Positions 25,266-64,000 of a DNA stretch of 64,000 nucleotides are shown one piece after another (positions within the stretch are counted from its first letter, which is position 1; every line of letters starts with the position of its first letter). The notes under the pieces were generated by a model. It was not told the DNA's origin. It made no database searches and saw only the letters and a list, made by a program, of their open reading frames with translations. The DNA comes from Dictyostelium discoideum (taxonomy: Eukaryota): positions 4,640,001-4,704,000 of the forward strand of contig CM000151.3 in assembly GCA_000004695.1 (NCBI GenBank), read 5' to 3'. The position numbers and the translations under genes are program-made.

Positions 25266-26448
25266 TTATTCTCTTGATTCTTCAACCCAACCTTTGCTTT
25301 GTTCTTCTTCTTCCTCTTCTTGAGTTTCTTCTTCGATTTGATCGAAAGCATTCTCTGGAACAGAGTAAAGATTGATAACATTACGATTTGGATCACGATG
25401 TAAAAGATATTTACCATTGGCTAATTTCATACAAGTTTGAGCGATATGTTTCAAAATACCCCAACAATTCTTCATGTCAACACCATTTTGTTTATTGAGA
25501 TCTGCAACTGGATAGAATTGAGTACCTAAAATGACGTGATTATTATTATCACGAATTGAATCACGAGAAACAAAACCTAAATTTAACATTTCACAACCTG
25601 CTAAAGTTGATTGAATAGACCATTTAGCAAACTATATTTTATATATAAAAAAAAAAAAAAAAAAAAGTTAAATTAAATAATAATTCAAAAGAATAATAGA
25701 GATATATATATATATATATAAATATTTACTTTAGTTGAATTGTTTTTAATTTCAGTAGCCAAGATAGCAGCTCTTTGAGAATCTAATTTCTTTCTAAATT
25801 CAATACCGAATCTATTACTATCATGTTCGTTAATAGCTTTGATAGAGATGAATTTTGGTGGTTGACCTGGAAGACCTTCGACGACACCATCGATTTCAGT
25901 ACGAGCTAAAACGACGATATCATCACCGAGATCCCATTTCTTGTAGGCGTAACCAACGTCAACGCAATTTTCAAATTCGTCACCTTCTGGAAGTTCATTA
26001 TCAAATTTGAATGGCTCAACATTTTGAGAGAGAACTTGTTGCCAATAGTTGAGATTGACTTGAGTTGCTTCTTGTGAGAGTGAGGAAGTGGTGTTGATTG
26101 GATCTTTGTCATCTTGATGATGAGCTGTAAGATTTTCATTGACTGTCAAATGTTCGGATGTACCTGGTCTCAATTCAAAGAATAAACGTGCACCAACCTT
26201 TTGAACGACGATATCCCAACTGTAGACTGACTTTTGAGCACTCATCAATACTGCTAAAATACTATCAGTGGCATAGACATTACCATTCATATATTCACTT
26301 CTAATTACCTTATCATCTGATGTTGGAATTAATGGAACACTGTTCTCTGTCTTTTGTAATTTCTTTTCATTCTTTGCATTAATTCTATCATAAACTTTAT
26401 TATAATATTTAACTTGACCATAAGTTCCACTGTGTTGTTGTTGTTGTT

Positions 26449-26485
<37 letters not shown>

Positions 26486-41339: not shown

Positions 41340-44300
41340 ATGACTACAATAGTAGCACCTCCAATAAAATCAATTACTTCAATCGATAATGATGATAACG
41401 TTGATGGTGTTATTGAAAAGTCAGTCAAAAAACCAGTATCTTTAACATTTGATCAAATCATTGATAGATTTTATAAACATATTTTAACATGGGATGCATC
41501 AGATTTATCACCAAAGGTATGTATTTATAAAATAGATAAAACAAATAATAATAATTTCAACAATGGGTGTATACTATAGTATTGGTACTAATACTACTAC
41601 TACTGTATTTATTAATAATAATAATTTTTTTTTTTTTTTAGGAAAAAGAATTAAAACCAGTAAAAGTATCATTTAATAATGAAGAGGATTATATAACAAC
41701 CTATGAACCATTGCTTTTTGAAGAATGTAGAGCACAACTTGAAAGATCAATTGAAGAAGGTGAAAAAGATGATACATCAGAACCTACTTTATCAAGAGTA
41801 CGTTATATTTCAGAAGTAAATGATTTTTTGGTTGTTGGATTAGTAATGGCAGAAAATGTAAATATATTTCAATTTCATGATAATGATTTAATTATGATAT
41901 CACTTCATCATCCTTTAATTGTTTTTGGTATGGATGAAGATGAAGAAATGACTGATGATGAAGATACTGCACCAACTTCTGCTGCAACTCATGTTGGTGC
42001 ACCAACAAAATCAACTACTACAACTACAACAACTACAACAACAACTACTACTACAACTACTACAGCAACTACAAATATAATTGATGATCCAAATAAAACA
42101 ACAGAAGATATAAAGAAAAAGAAAAAGGTTATTCCACCATCAAAAACACCAATAACAGAACAAAATAGAACTTTACATTTAATTGGTACAGTTGAACATT
42201 TAGATAATGGTGGTATAAAGGTTAAATTCTATGTAAAAGGTATTAAAGGTGATCGTGCAAGACAAGTTAGTTTATTATTACGTTATGAAATTGATTGGTG
42301 GACAACTAAATTATGTAATCTTTCAACATTGCAAAGAGAGTTTGCTGCATTGTATCAATGTTCACAATCAAATTTTATGAAGACACTTATGATGAGAGAT
42401 GATGATGGTGAGGATGGTATAGTAATGAAGATTCCACCATTGTTACATGATCAATTCTCTTCAACCTATAATGACAGTCAATTGAATGCACTCACCAGTG
42501 CATTGGAAGGTAATGCAATCACATTGATTCAAGGTCCACCTGGTACGGGTAAAACCCATGTAATTCTCGGTCTCATTAGTGTATTACTTCATTCAACAAT
42601 TGTTCCAAAGGTTAAAAGTGGTGGTAATAATTTAGGTGATCATTTACTAAAGGACAGAGAATTAAGTATGGCAGAGAAGCGTGACCTATGGAATATTTCA
42701 CAACCATGGTTCAATAAGGAATTCCCTCACATTAGAGATAATTATGAATTGATTGATTACGATTTCGAAGAACGTGATCAAAAGAGAAAGAGAGATCTTT
42801 GGAGAAAACTTAGAGATACAGGTTCAGTGAAGGGTGGCTCAACCAAACGTAGAATCTTACTATGTGCACCAAGTAATGGTGCTGTCGATGAAATTGTCTC
42901 TCGTTTAATTCGTGATGGACTTTTGAATGCCGATGGAAGAAAGTACAATCCAAATTTGGTTCGTGTTGGTCCTGGTTCACATAGCGATGTGGAGAGTGTT
43001 TCATTGGATTATATGGTTAGATGTCGTCAACAATTAATGAACTCAAATTCTGCTATACCTTCTTCATCCGCTTCGACAGCCGCTGCAACAAGTGGTTCAA
43101 GTCGTTCCACTCAAGATACTTCCTCGATTAGAACGTTGGTTTTGGATGAAGCTGATATTGTCGCCACAACATTATCATTTAGTGGTGCATCATTGTTGAC
43201 AAAGATGGCAGGTGGTTTCGATATTGTAATCATTGATGAGGCTGCACAAGCCGTAGAAACCTCGACATTAATTCCCATTCAACATGGTTGTAAAAAGGTG
43301 GTGTTGGTTGGTGATCCAAAACAATTGCCTGCCACTATTATCTCGCCATTGGCTATCAAGTATAAATATGATCAATCGTTATTCCAACGTTTACAAGAGA
43401 AGAATTCACCACATATGTTGACCACACAATATCGTATGCATTCATTGATTCGTGCATTCCCCTCACGTCATTTCTATCAAGATCTCTTATTGGATGGTCC
43501 AAACATTCCATCAAGAGCTACACACTATCATTCAAATCCTTTCTTTGGTCCATTGGTATTCTATGATCTATCATGGAGTACTGAAACCAAACCCGGTGGT
43601 GGTTCAGTTTTCAATGAGCATGAATGTAAGATGGCTATGTATCTATTCCAATTGTTTACCAAAGTTTATCCTGATGAAGATTTTGCAAGTCGTATTGGTA
43701 TCATTTCACCATATCGTCAACAGGTTTTAGCATTACGTGAAATCTTTAAAAACTATCCTGGTATCTCTATTGATACCGTAGATGGTTTCCAAGGTAGAGA
43801 GAGAGAAATCATCATTTTCAGTTGTGTTAGAGCACCAGTTGAAGAGGGTGCAGGTATTGGTTTTCTTTCAGATGTTCGTCGTATGAATGTAGCTTTAACA
43901 CGTCCAAGATCATCTCTATTGATCCTTGGTAATACTAAAGCATTAAGTATCAACAAAGATTGGAATGAATTAATTCAACATACTCAAAACAATCAACAAT
44001 TAATTCCTGTTACCAAAGATCAACCATTAGAAATTATCATACCAACTTTTACAACTCGTGAATTATTTACCGAACTCTCTGAAAAAGGTCAACAAATTGT
44101 AATTCCAAAACCAAGAACTGAAGAAGAAATTAATCTTCAAAAACAAAAAGATATTGAAAAAAGAAAGAAACAACATAAAAGACAAAAACAAAAATCAAAA
44201 GAAAATGATAAAAAGAAACAATTAAAAAAAAGAAAAGAATTAAATAATAATGATAATAATAATAATAATAAAGAAAGTAGTAATAAAGAAGTTCAAGAAA

Positions 44301-44368
44301 TTACTAATGCAGAAGTTGTTAAAGACACTGAAATAAATAATACTAAAAGGGCTAGAACAAGAAGATAA
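41340..44368 (+). CDS. Senataxin/Sen1-type UPF1-like superfamily-1 helicase, ~967 aa. CDS join(41340..41516, 41642..44368).
   Basis: Exon 1 MTTIVAPP...WDASDLSPK (donor GTATGT); acceptor ttttttag. Exon 2 EKELKPVKVSFNNEEDYITTYEPLLFEECRAQLERS.... Motifs: LIQGPPGTGKTHVILGLIS (Walker A), LLCAPSNGAVDEIVSRL, IIDEAAQAVE (DEAA box), VLVGDPKQLP, TTQYRMHSLI, VDGFQGREREIIIFSCVRA, FLSDVRRMNVALTRPRSSLLILGN. Confidence 0.8.
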
Positions 44369-44531: not shown

Positions 44532-45313
44532 TTATTTTTCCTGAACTGGTAAATATAAAGATGGTAAAGTTGGACAAATATCAATATTTTGACAAATTAA
44601 TGATGGTGATTCACTATTATTAATTAAATCAATAACGATTGGAGTATTTTGTAAAACTAAAATTTGACATGTTAAAACCAAATCTTTTGAATCAAGGAGT
44701 TCACATTCCTCATCTAAATATGATATAATCTCTTTCTCTGTAGAGTTTGTTTGTTGGAGATAGTATTCTACCTTTTTGGTTAAATGTTTACAAAATGTAC
44801 ATCCTGAATTCTCTGCTTCTAAATCATTATTATTATTATTATTATTGACTATTAAATTATTAAATTCATATTTATTTACTTTTTTACATAATCCCAACAT
44901 ATTACAAATTTTTGATGGATGTTCTGAATTTCTTATAAGTTTGATTATTAAATCACCATTACACTATTTTTTTAAAAAAAAAAAAAATAATAATCATAAA
45001 ATTGTAAGAAAAAAGTAAAAAAAAAAAAAACTAATATGAAAAAGGGTATTGATTTACATACAAAATCAATCCATTTATCTGGAAGTAAAATATAAGAAGT
45101 TTCAAATTCATTCATTATATAATTTTTTGGTTTTTGTTGTAGTATTAATTCTTTAATATATGATATTAGGAAATTACAATGCTCACATTCCGTCATTTTC
45201 TGTTGTTGTTTGATTGATTTTTGTTGGATTGAATTTTGTTGTTTATTTCCAAAACTAATACCAATAAAACCATTTAATATTAATAATAAACAAACTAAAA
45301 AAATTAATTTCAA
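44532..45313 (-). CDS. Saposin-like (amoebapore-like) secreted protein, two exons (approximate structure)
   Basis: Signal peptide MKLIFLVCLLLILNGFIGISFG. Exon 1 reads ...CEHCNFLISYIKEL...DKWIDF (donor GTATGT). Exon 2 holds a canonical saposin B domain: CTFC-x28-C-x11-C-x24-C-x5-C (CTFCKHLTKKVEYYLQQ...CELLDSKDLVLTCQILV...LICQNIDIC). The first domain is atypical, with only five Cys as spliced here. Confidence 0.5.
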
Positions 45314-45349: not shown

Positions 45350-46285
45350 CTTTAAAGAAAAAACAAGAACAAAAAAATGGAAATTAATTACTTTATATAC
45401 TGTAAAACAAACAAAAAAAAAAATTAATAATTATAGAAAAAAAATGTGAAAATAAAAAAAAAAAGAAAATTTTTAAAGGTTAATTTTTGTTTATTTTATT
45501 TTGTTCATTGGGGTTTATTTTTGTTTCAGATTTAATTTTATAACACTTTTTAAATAAAAAAAAAATTAATAAAAAAATAAAAAAACAAAATAAAACAAAA
45601 CAAAACAACAAAATAAAATAAAATAAAATAAAATGAAACAATATAAAACAAAATAAATCAAAAATAAATCAAACAAAACTAAACATAAAAAAATAAAATA
45701 ATAGAGCACTCAAAAATGCATAAAATGATATAAAAAAATAAAAATAATGAAAGTATTTTTTGGGGATTTACATAAAATAAAAGATTTTTTATTATAATTT
45801 GATAAGAAAACATTTATAAAGATCTTTATAAATTTAATATTAGCATATCACCTAATAGAGAAGTTGTCAAAGCAGTATTTGGTTTGGTTCGTGTTGTTAT
45901 TGCAACCTTTAAAGATACCAAATGTTGAACATTAACACAATAATTTATATAAATGATTTATTAATTAAATTAAATTAGTTAAAAATACTAGCCTAAATTA
46001 TTGCTCATGTTTTATCGGAATCTTGTAATAGAAAAATATAATAAAATTAAATAAATAAATAGATATAAATAAAAATAAAGTAATAAGTTGATGCTATTAT
46101 CGAAAATATCTAAAATTTATTATGAATATTTTTTACTATTGAAAATTTTTATACTTGAGATTTAAAATTATGTTTATGAGTTTTTCAATCGACATTAAAA
46201 ACTCACCACGTGGCTTTTTCCCACATAGGTGAGAAAAGTCTAATTTTTTTCAAAATAAATATTTTGGTGAATAATTTCAAAAATC

Positions 46286-47921
46286 TTAATCTTTATCTTC
46301 TGCCTTATATTTTTTAATTGGTGTTTGAAATACTTCGTTTGAAATTTCATGAGTATTTTTTGTTGGTTGTGGTGATGTTTCTTCTTTTTCTTTACGAGTT
46401 TTACTACGAGTTAATGGTGGTTGTGGTTGTGGTTTACCAGTTTGTGGTGGTAGTTGTATTTGTTTAACAGTTTGTGGTGGTGGATCTTTTGTTCGTCCTT
46501 CATCTATTAAAGTTTGGTACATTTCATTGCTGACAGCATCAATATCTAGTGGATCTATAGGATCTACAGATGAAAGGTCTATAAATACAACGACTCTATC
46601 ATTGTTGGGGGTAGAATGTCTAGCAACATGTCTTCTCTTAAGGTCTAAATGCTTGTAGCCAGCTCTCGCAAATCTAAGACAGGCTAATTCGACGAGTTTT
46701 AAAAATCTATGGTCTTTCCAATCATCTTCATCCTCATCAACAATTTTCAAGAATGGCATCAGTAAACATTGGTAATTATTCATAGAAACTGAAAGAGTTG
46801 TTATATCCCATGCATTCTTCCAGATAACTGTTTCTTTTTCTACTTTCTCTTTGGTAAAAGTATTATTGAAGAATTTGACTACAGTTAAATTCCTGTTTAC
46901 TGTTGTCTCTTTCCAAACATAACCATCTCTACCGCTGCCCAATCTAGAAATCAAAACTTATTTTTCTAAATCTTTAGTATCTTTAGAGAAATTTACCATT
47001 TCTTTGAGATCTGATTTAATTGTATATCTATCGAGATTCACCCAACGTGAACCTGTACTATCTATAACTTGATAAGATTTTAATGAACTAGAGGTTTCTA
47101 ATGCATCAATTAAACAAGCTTTCATTTTAAAAATGGCTGTACACAAGACATTGATTAAATCTGGGTCATTATGATGATAAACTCTTGAACAACATAATTC
47201 TCTTTTAAGATTAGAGTCACTTTCAAGAAGTGATTTTAAACTAGTTGATGGAGATTCAATTCTATTTGGTATTTTATTTCTATTTTCTTCTGGTAGTTTT
47301 TGCATTTGTTGTTTGCCACAATTTATTTCAATATCTTTAAATTTATCCAATTGATCAGCACCCATAGTCCATACTATTTTAAAAGAATTGTAAGTTGAAA
47401 AAATACCAAATACATGCTCAAGTGAAGAGCAGTTCTTAACCATCATGAGATAGTCAAAACATTGGCCCATAGCTTCGCTTGAATCCATAGCTCTCATTTC
47501 CTGAGTAGATATTTACAATCGATGGAAGTTTAACTTGTACAAAACCAATAGGTCGATCTACCATGCATATTAAAATAAAATCTGGAATCATACCGGATAT
47601 ACCTTTTTGTTTTTTCAATATGATATGGCTTTCCATTCCTGTTAAATATATAATATCACAAAGTAATCCATGGATCTTTTCGGATATGTCCATTTCATTT
47701 TCAAAATGGTATGGATCATCTGTTTGTAACAATTCCAAACCAAAATGTGTGTATAATTTTGATGCTTTTTTATGATCAGCAATATGTTTAATATGTTTTT
47801 TAAATTTGTTAAAATACCAAATTCTTTTGTATGGCATCACAAATTTTATGATGACTTGTTGATAATCTACCACGTATAGCTGGAATGCAACCTCTTTCAT
47901 ATAAAGATATAAAAAATACAA
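46286..47921 (-). pseudogene. Frameshifted, GC-shifted gene remnant encoding an atypical protein-kinase-like fold; three consecutive ORFs in three frames
   Basis: ORFs 47921..47454, 47497..46958 and 46954..46286 abut or overlap in different frames. ORF 46954..46286 has LGSGRDGYVWKETTVNRNLTVVKFF (G-loop plus VAIK-like lysine), YKHLDLKRRHV (HxDxK catalytic-loop-like) and VVFIDLS (DFG-like). GC content is ~35% against ~22-25% in the surrounding sequence. Codons agg, gag and aca are used where the host prefers aga, gaa and act. A 15-bp tandem repeat (tcttctgctttttct) lies just 5' at 48060-48130. Confidence 0.45.
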
Positions 47922-49181
47922 AAAAGAAAAGTAAACTGGTTAGATTATGTTGTTGAATTGCGTTCCGTTTAACGGCTATATAGATAAATACTTTTTAAAG
48001 AAACCTTCATTTCTTGTTGTTGTTGTTGTTGTTTCTCATTTTGTAATTTTAATGTTTCTTCTTCTTGCTTTTTTCTTCTGCTTTTTCTTCTGCTTTTTCT
48101 TGTGCTTGTTGTATTTTTTCTTCTGCTTTTTCTTGCATCTTTTTTATTTTCTCTTCTTTAATATATGTATTATTATTTATTTTTTTGATTACTTTTTTTT
48201 TTTTTAAAAAAATCAATAAAAATTTATTGTTGATTTTTCCAGAATATTATGATGTGTTTATAGAAAATTCTCTATTTAAAAATCTAAAAAAATCTTATAA
48301 AAAATTATAAAAACTTTAATTTTTAAGTAAAATTGATTATCTTTGGAAGATTAAAGGTCATTCTTTAAAATAAAAATAAATTCGAATAAAATAATAAAAA
48401 TAAACTTAAATTTTGGAAATACTGTTCTTTTTTTATTATTTGTTGAAATTTTATTTGAGGGGAGGGGTATACTCAATTAGATTTTTTAAAAATTCTCCAA
48501 ACTCAATGAGTGTATTTGATTTTGTAATATAACTGGCAGTGAATGTTATTGACCATCAAAAGAAATTACATTCCAAAAAAAGAAAGTTCTCCAATGGTGA
48601 AAGCCCCTGAGGGTATACCAATACGATAAAATTTTCTATTAATGATGTCCACGTGGAATTAAAATAGTTTCTATAAATGTAAAATAGGATGGGTCCCTTT
48701 TTTGTATAGAATCATTTTCTTTTTCAAACGTTTTTTTATTGATTTTTGACCAATACTTAAATAATAAAATATATTTAGTAAGAAAGATAAGAAGATTTTT
48801 ACTGAAAATTTTTTATTTAAATTTTAAAATTTTTATAATTATTTTTCTTTTTTTGTCCAAAATATCTACTAAATTTTTTTTTTTTATTTTTCTATTTTTT
48901 TTTTTTATTTTATTTTATTTTTAAAAAAAAAAAAAAAAATTTTTTAATTAAACCCCTTTTTTTTTTTTTTATCATTGTTTTTTTTTTTTTTTTTTATTAT
49001 TTTTTTTTTTTTTAAATTTTTTATATTTCATATAGCAATAGAATCAAGTTTGATAAAAATACTATTATTATATAAATAAAATTATTTAAAATTTTTTATT
49101 TTTTTATTTTTTTTTTTCAGAAAAGTTTTTAATCCCGTATAAAAAAAGTAAAAAAAATAAATAAATAAAAAATCAAATAAA

Positions 49182-63191: not shown

Positions 63192-64000
63192 TTATTCAAA
63201 TAAATTTTCATTTTCAGGTTGATTTTCTTCATCATCATTTGCTGAAGGAGCCATTTGAGTCCAATTTTGGAAATGAGCAGGTCTATGAGATTCATCATAA
63301 AAGTTTTTAGGATAATCTAATTTCAAACCATAGGTCATATTTGTGGAATGTTTAACACCCATGAAATTATAATTCCAAGAACCACGATCAGGTACCATAT
63401 AGAAACCAAGGAAACGATCGGATAATAACATTTGAACCTTCTCATAGAATTGTGGTTGATAACCTTGATAATTGAGAGAATCTTTATTATTTTTACCCCA
63501 TTCAAAACCACTTGGAGTCAAATGGTAAGCAGTTAGAGTACAAGGCCAAGCCACAGAGACAGAGATGATAACAGTTTTCTCACCATCCCAACTCTTATTG
63601 TCAGACATAATCTTTGAATGAGTGATAACATCTTGTGGTGATAGTTGTGGTAATTCAGTTGGTTGAGTGTGAATCCAACCCAATGGTTCTAAATCTTTGA
63701 GATATTCATGTTCTGGTAATTGATTTGGTACGGTTACATGAACTGGTGTACCCCATTGTGGTGGCATTACAATACAACGAATTTCTTTTACTGATGGATT
63801 ATCGGGTGGTGAGATACCATAACAATAACCCATGATTTGAGTACGAAGATCGGCAATGGTAATGAATTTCTTTAAGATATTCTTTGGGAAAACATAAGTG
63901 AAACCACCAGTTTCTTTAGCGTTATCAGAGTTTACATAGATTTGATTGGTACGTAAATGAAGATTAGTTGCACTGATAGCACGTACACGCCAATCTGTTT
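63192..64000 (-). CDS. prpf8: Pre-mRNA-processing factor 8 (PRP8), C-terminal end with the MPN/JAB1 domain; gene continues beyond the window
   Basis: ...[84 protein letters not shown]...[17 protein letters not shown]...[12 protein letters not shown]...[14 protein letters not shown]...[30 protein letters not shown]... is near-identical to the human PRPF8 C-terminus. Stop at 63192. Confidence 0.95.

Follow-up and report, generated by a model that had tools for sequence, protein, structure and literature searches.

DDB_G0274397, a gene of Dictyostelium discoideum annotated in strain AX4 as a DUF5898 domain-containing protein of 434 amino acids (aa), lies on the minus strand of the window analysed here, a stretch of 64,000 nucleotides (nt) of contig CM000151.3 (assembly GCA_000004695.1, positions 4,640,001 to 4,704,000). 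Our analysis indicates that this locus is very probably a pseudogene that belongs to the eukaryotic DUF5898 family, is native to the host and was inactivated recently. It is best described as an already annotated member of a known family of domains of unknown function, in which a pseudogene has been mis-modelled as a spliced gene. A previous reading of the same DNA made without database searches (hereafter the sequence-only reading) had recognized a decaying gene with a kinase-like fold at this place and had considered it impossible to assign to a known family.

Three open reading frames (ORFs A, B and C) follow one another on the minus strand, exactly where the sequence-only reading had placed them (Table 1). 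The window has a guanine plus cytosine (GC) content of ~22%, with long homopolymers and N/Q/T-rich coding runs, and all three ORFs are far above the length expected by chance for a genome of ~22% GC. A hidden Markov model (HMM) of the family, with 510 match states and based on 70 full-length homologues, this locus being left out, was matched by ORF A (states 65-154, E 5e-15), ORF B (states 157-322, E 5e-35) and ORF C (states 331-487, E 1.5e-46), and by no other ORF of the window. Full-length alignments with 14 and with 70 homologues gave the same collinear order, A-B-C. As the three ORFs match successive blocks of the model, they represent adjoining pieces of what was once a single gene of ~540 codons, and the idea of a once-continuous gene of ~540 aa in decay is thereby upheld. 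The manner in which it is broken is not the one originally proposed, that is, three frames separated by two frameshifts. The ORFs occupy two frames, A in one and B together with C in the other; only the passage from A to B is frameshifted, and a TAA stands between B and C. In comparison with the intact DUF5898 members, ORF C matches the domain model end to end and the ORFs upstream of it correspond, in the same order, to the N-terminal regions of these proteins, whereas the present copy is broken by a frameshift and a nonsense codon and does not form one uninterrupted coding sequence. In a protein collection clustered at 90%, the conceptually repaired protein had only three close matches, all from D. 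discoideum and all representing this locus: DDB_G0274397 itself (P0002, strain AX4, 434 aa), ACTFIT_003633 from another D. discoideum assembly (P0001, 510 aa) and an unnamed product of Logan read assemblies (P0003, 314 aa).

The nonsense codon separating B from C sits on a column of the family alignment occupied by Ile or Leu, just ahead of the first kinase beta-strand, so that a change of one base, from ATA or TTA to TAA, accounts for it. The same frameshift and the same TAA are present in GCA_054883475.1, an independent D. discoideum assembly that is 99.91% identical over positions 51139-43286 of the window and shows zero differences between 48750 and 45317. A more diverged strain type is represented by Logan contigs from five read sets, 99.0% identical to window positions 48903-46195. 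These contigs retain the TAA at 46960-46958 and carry a 1-nt deletion of their own, at 46683, which disrupts the DUF5898 ORF. They also contain an extra GA at about 47496, which joins A and B into the 314-aa ORF of P0003 ('...SGNERAMDSS...'), intact from its ATG in the five samples, and a 4-nt insertion at about 48072, which makes the upstream coiled-coil ORF continuous. A shared nonsense codon combined with strain-specific disabling indels is the pattern of a pseudogene, and not that of a sequencing error or of programmed recoding.

Errors of sequencing or assembly in the reference could in principle simulate such lesions in a live gene, an option that the sequence-only reading had kept. The frameshift does fall in a short dinucleotide run, GAGAG, and the 5' lesion in an A-run. 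However, the base-for-base identity of GCA_054883475.1 across the lesions argues against an artefact (this holds unless that assembly was polished with the reference), and the TAA, which results from a substitution and not from an indel, occurs in contigs of independent read sets. We therefore attribute an almost negligible probability to this explanation. The reference-type sequence shows a 2-bp slippage deletion in the GAGAG run, which throws the nuclease-like domain out of frame, a one-base nonsense mutation where this domain meets the kinase-like one, replacement of the catalytic Glu of the nuclease by Gln, and disruption of the 5' coiled-coil segment. ORF C has no ATG upstream of its Gly-rich loop, and consequently the kinase-like domain cannot be produced alone. 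Together with the lesions, this means that no full-length protein is possible, and the locus appears to have lost its function.

The 434-aa model of DDB_G0274397 seems to look intact only by virtue of two GT..AG introns placed across the lesions. Intron 1 excises the best-conserved stretch of the N-terminal domain (D107, Q/E122, K124, G146-Q147, D150-Y151, FGI and TY..W), and intron 2 excises 30 in-frame codons, W287 and the TAA included. Both have an exon-like GC content and code for conserved residues of the family; introns of Dictyostelium are reportedly about 12-13% GC. In D. discoideum, the intact paralogues ACTFIW_005589 and ACTFIR_002682 run without interruption through 567 and 573 codons, and the D. 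dimigraforme homologue contains the entire family profile within a single ORF. Because of their exon-like GC, the removal of the conserved core and the single-ORF organization of the paralogues, we infer that both introns are spurious and were introduced into the model to restore the frame.

A live gene with the annotated structure, with two real introns and a 434-aa product that combines an incomplete N-terminal region with an intact DUF5898 domain, is in our opinion very unlikely. A GT..AG pair does exist for each intron, splicing yields an open product, none of the kinase-like motifs is damaged and four of the six substitutions between strains are synonymous. Nevertheless, the introns resemble exons at GC values of 0.33 and 0.27, their donors, GTATGA and GTTGGG, look atypical, and the paralogues code the corresponding regions in one exon. 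Moreover, loss of the PD..(E)xK..GQ..DY core with intron 1 would destroy the fold of the N-terminal domain, and the 1-nt deletion in the DUF5898 region of the diverged strain is not rescued by the spliced model. It would probably be advisable to flag DDB_G0274397 as a pseudogene. The value of this correction is curatorial, the 434-aa model without the conserved nuclease core being propagated into UniRef and Pfam.

Several observations weigh against the interpretation of the locus as a pseudogene. Every catalytic and ATP-binding residue of the kinase-like domain, and the conserved H425 as well, is still intact in this copy, and GT..AG boundaries able to restore the frame do exist. Strains in which the GA is restored could still produce a nuclease-like protein of 314 aa. 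Neutral drift since the shared TAA should have given mostly non-synonymous changes, but of the coding substitutions between strains (n=6) four are synonymous and two non-synonymous. With n=6 only, this hints but weakly at constraint that is recent or residual; it would also indicate that the inactivation is recent.

Some of these points could also be accommodated by a split and partly functional locus, where strains with the restored GA make P0003 alone and the kinase part is silent or expressed via read-through. The ORF of P0003 is intact from its ATG in five Logan samples, and synonymous-biased substitutions fit residual constraint. Such a protein would, however, have Gln in place of the catalytic Glu in both strain types, and all full-length homologues (70/70) keep the two domains fused. 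In addition, ORF C is devoid of an ATG ahead of its G-loop, and the N-terminal ORF of the reference type is itself frameshifted. We consider this scenario very unlikely and retain the pseudogene interpretation.

Both halves of the former protein could be given a fold. ORF C matched the Pfam model DUF5898 (PF19250) with 125.2 bits (cut-off 28.9, E 1.4e-36) over model positions 1-108 of 109. The only paper we found that mentions DUF5898 names it in a list together with the PKinase-clan families of Pfam (PMC9758233). The motifs cited in the sequence-only reading are present and stand on family-invariant columns (G324/G327, K343, E357, H418, D420, H425 and D442); more generally, G322/G324/G327, K343, E357, H418-x-D420 and D442 are all found in this copy and are 93-100% conserved in the family. 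A profile of 28 domain sequences matched CK2alpha', Lyn, Fyn and CaMKI in the PDB (E about 1e-3), with the Gly-loop, VxK, the alphaC Glu, the hinge, H-x-D-L-K-x-x-H/N and the DFG-position Asp in register, and Pfam Kdo was matched by 4 of 15 family members. An AlphaFold 2 (AF2) model of the C-terminal domain, based on 117 sequences, had a predicted local distance difference test score (pLDDT) above 90 over residues 1-155. In Foldseek comparisons this model matched Rio2 (1zar, E 4e-7), CK1 delta, CK2 alpha, CLK1 and RioK1 with a probability of 1.0, the E values for Rio2, CK1 delta and CK2 alpha ranging from 4e-7 to 1e-6, and the fold is that of a bilobal kinase, in which the beta-sheet and alphaC of the N-lobe, the hinge and the catalytic loop surround the ATP site. 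The atypical protein-kinase-like fold suggested from the letters alone and the positions given there for the G-loop with its Lys, the HxD loop and the DFG-like Asp are therefore borne out by the DUF5898 match, the CK2 profile alignment and the fold matches with Rio2, CK1 and CK2.

The kinase-like fold comprises ~155 residues, finishes one helix past D442-L-S and is without an activation segment in the AF2 model. The position of the catalytic-loop Asn (D+5) is occupied by His (H425) in 94% of the family, and the canonical HRDxxxxN is thus absent. H425 and the short C-lobe define an atypical, RIO-like domain and not a canonical eukaryotic protein kinase. The domain superposes on the RIO kinases (Rio2, RioK1) and on CK1/CK2 in its N-lobe, its hinge, its catalytic loop and its metal-binding Asp, and the G-loop, the Lys of beta3, the Glu of alphaC, HxD and the Asp of DFG are in register. 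Like the RIO kinases, the domain is short and has neither the classical activation segment nor the substrate-binding subdomains. It differs from RIO and CK proteins by the family-wide H425 in place of Asn, by (F/I)DLS in place of DFG and by an identity of just 14-20% and, unlike RIO kinases, it has no RIO-specific flexible loop or winged helix. The intact members probably contain a nucleotide-binding mini-kinase that is catalytically competent. The C-terminal tail that follows is predicted to be disordered, with pLDDT values under 70 starting near residue 160 of ORF C.

For the N-terminal domain there is no Pfam model and its profile found no match among PDB sequences; fold comparison alone was informative. 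It revealed a restriction-endonuclease-like alpha-beta-beta-beta-alpha-beta core, with dozens of restriction-endonuclease-fold proteins among the matches. Weak Pfam matches to SduA_C (0.025) and VRR_NUC (0.059) were seen in family members. The conserved motif of the family is E69...D107...E122-x-K124...G-Q..D-Y, with D107 conserved in 86%, E122 in 86% and K124 in 90%; this motif had already pointed to a nuclease of the PD-(D/E)XK type. On the best-supported reading, the N-terminal domain of the intact members would be a metal-dependent PD-(D/E)XK nuclease. It can be likened to the PD-(D/E)XK nuclease domains found at the N-terminus of the type IIG enzymes BpuSI and DrdV and in the type I subunit HsdR, from which it differs in belonging to a eukaryotic protein without a methyltransferase or helicase partner domain. 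In DDB_G0274397 the D...(D/E)-x-K triad is not preserved: it reads D107, Q122, K124 (D...Q-V-K), the catalytic Glu E122 being replaced by Gln (CAA) in both strain types. Further departures at conserved positions are G160S, W174F, G337R and G427A. Together with Q122, they are consistent with decay or with an earlier loss of nuclease function.

A phmmer search of 1.84 billion cluster representatives detected 151 proteins with E <=1e-3, including 34 with E <=1e-10. Many members of the family are 450-650 aa long with DUF5898 at the C-terminus, and 70 of the hits listed measure 430-700 aa. Intact members are encoded by a single ORF and consist of a coiled coil (in many members), the PD-(D/E)XK-like domain and the C-terminal RIO/CK-like mini-kinase domain, the latter two being fused in 70/70 full-length homologues. 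Named members come from the dictyostelids (D. discoideum strains, D. dimigraforme, Polysphondylium violaceum and Tieghemostelium lacteum), the filasterean Capsaspora owczarzaki and the zoosporic fungi Lobulomyces angularis and Hyaloraphidium curvatum. D. discoideum itself has paralogues, DDB_G0287885 among them. The nearest predicted relative of DDB_G0274397 is just 34-39% identical, indicating that the locus is a single-copy, old lineage of the family and not a recent repeat.

Intact members of 567, 573 and 641 aa occur in other D. discoideum strain assemblies, GCA_054859355.1 (L005 4001-5704) and GCA_054859385.1 (L006 4001-5722). The protein clusters of these 567-, 573- and 641-aa members list no AX4 accession. 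This suggests that the copies of the nuclease-kinase family present differ between strains.

The architecture of the intact members recalls that of Ire1 and RNase L, which share with them the concept of a kinase or pseudokinase fused to a nuclease and accompanied by an oligomerization element. The order of the domains is reversed, however, the nuclease is of the PD-(D/E)XK type here and KEN there, and homology is limited to the kinase superfamily. The KEN nuclease domain of Ire1 and RNase L has a HEPN fold. Our best guess by analogy is that the kinase-like module would gate or accompany the nuclease in the intact members, as in Ire1 and RNase L. Such proteins could be envisaged as coiled-coil-mediated oligomers in which a nucleotide-binding mini-kinase would gate a PD-(D/E)XK nuclease.

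Patchy distribution, lineage-specific expansion, apparent copy differences between strains and strain-specific pseudogenization hint at a conflict system. They allow speculation, which we hold to be tentative and rather improbable, that DUF5898 proteins are an uncharacterized eukaryotic fusion acting as a conflict or self/non-self nuclease-kinase effector of a new kind. Nothing relevant on DDB_G0274397 or on Dictyostelium nuclease-kinase fusions was found in the few literature searches made. At the level of the family, the presence of an un-modelled restriction-endonuclease-like domain ahead of a minimal kinase domain that looks catalytically complete provides a testable hypothesis. It concerns social amoebae, Capsaspora and early-branching fungi and has no bearing on horizontal transfer or transposons.

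The composition of the locus had been described as far from that of the host, with a preference for agg, gag and aca codons, and the gene had been proposed to be foreign or transposon cargo. The counts do not agree with this description. GC at the locus is 0.30-0.34 and GC at third codon positions (GC3) 0.18-0.28, to be compared with 0.18-0.35 and 0.07-0.23, respectively, for the 20 ORFs of the window that extend from stop to stop over 200 codons or more, ORF C included; the ORFs at 25688-26485, 63195-63998 and 41642-44365 match the locus in GC richness. AGG and AGA are used in a ratio of 1:16, GAG and GAA of 5:27, and ACA and ACT of 14:13, ORFs of the host also having about 50% ACA. AGA, GAA and codons ending in A or T are favoured, as they are in the host. 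In composition and codon use the locus thus resembles its host, and its GC merely lies towards the high end of the values seen in host exons.

An origin by horizontal acquisition or as transposon cargo, followed by pseudogenization, is not supported, and we regard it as highly improbable. The GC3 of the locus is near the top of the window's ORFs, the family is patchy, multi-copy and seemingly variable between strains, and GC rises in the upstream region, at 48400-48700. Against these points stand the host-like codon preferences and the results of the repeat search, which detected AT-rich low complexity only, with no terminal repeats, terminal inverted repeats or long terminal repeats. No tRNA genes, which TRE and DGLT-A elements would target, were found nearby, and no second copy of the family exists elsewhere in the 64-kb window. 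The nearest predicted protein is as distant as stated above, the neighbouring genes are ordinary, with an order kept in another assembly, all named relatives are eukaryotic, and PADLOC and NCBIfam gave no matches.

Upstream of ORF A, a putative coiled-coil segment with an EKAE repeat is probably the vestigial N-terminus of the same gene, given that a K/E-rich coiled coil is found at the N-terminus of many intact homologues. In the window and in GCA_054883475.1 it is frameshifted by a 4-nt loss in an A-rich run at about 48072, and in the ~1% diverged strain it forms one intact ORF of 55 codons (L001 688-933). Between 47969 and 47900 there are stops in all frames, and no frame-preserving GT..AG pair joining the coiled-coil ORF to ORF A was found by eye. 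The repeat, at 48059-48157, is imperfect and has a period of 12 nt; it had been taken for a 15-bp (KAEEK)n tandem repeat.

Table 1. Features of the DDB_G0274397 locus and of its surroundings (window coordinates)
Feature	Position	Strand	Description or basis
Putative vestigial N-terminal coiled-coil segment	47969..48138	-	MQEKAEEKIQQAQEKAEEKAEEK...; imperfect 12-nt EKAE repeat
ORF A	47921-47454, annotated ATG at 47900	-	first half of PD-(D/E)XK restriction-endonuclease-like domain
Nuclease motif residues, ORF A	E69; D107 (47582-47580); Q122 (47537-47535, CAA); K124 (47531-47529)	-	family alignment
Frameshift A to B	about 47491-47496	-	GAGAG here, GAGAGAG in diverged strain; 2-bp slippage loss
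ORF B	46958..47497	-	second half of nuclease-like domain and linker; terminates at in-frame TAA
ORF B motifs	G146-Q147, D150-Y151, FGI, TY..W	-	family alignment
In-frame TAA	46960-46958	-	between nuclease-like and kinase-like domains; B and C split by TAA and one codon
ORF C	46954-46286	-	DUF5898 kinase-like domain and tail
DUF5898 mini protein-kinase-like domain	46493..46957	-	Pfam, HMM, AF2 model
Kinase motifs, N-lobe and hinge	G-loop LGSGRDG, K343 (46876-46874), E357, hinge MPF	-	family alignment
Kinase motifs, catalytic loop and DFG position	H418-L-D420-LKRR-H425 (46651-46628), D442-LS (46579-46577)	-	family alignment
C-terminal tail and stop codon	46286..46492	-	low-complexity, P/Q/K-rich, predicted disordered
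Intron 1 of DDB_G0274397 model	47593-47374	-	220 nt, GC 0.33, GTATGA...AATAG; spans frameshift
Intron 2 of DDB_G0274397 model	47046-46957	-	90 nt, GC 0.27, GTTGGG...ATAAG
Saposin-like gene	44532-45313	-	Pfam SapB_1/SapB_2 on equivalent gene in other assembly
Large helicase-like ORF	41711-44368	+	GPPGTGKT motif read in translation

Further upstream, the elevation of GC noted at 48340-48730 is real and modest (0.27-0.32 over 48400-48700, as against 0.13-0.18 in the flanks), and the gagggtatac repeats reported there were reduced to one exact copy of GAGGGTATAC, at 48609, and one near-copy. No stop-free stretch of more than about 50 codons was found in 48340-48730, and Rfam gave no match for the whole window or for 45800-49000. 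This bump may represent a promoter, or what is left of the 5' end of the decayed gene. On its minus strand, ~90 nt are enclosed by a box resembling the Dictyostelium upstream sequence element (DUSE), ACCCATCC, at about 48695, and by a T7 run at about 48575. A small RNA candidate in 48560-48650 was rejected, its folding being no better than that of shuffled sequences (z 0.29).

The DDB_G0274397 locus lies between the acyltransferase and saposin-like genes; a further D. discoideum assembly preserves the order of these two neighbours and of the helicase gene. The helicase-like ORF has an exon GC content of 0.35-0.38, above that of the DDB_G0274397 locus.

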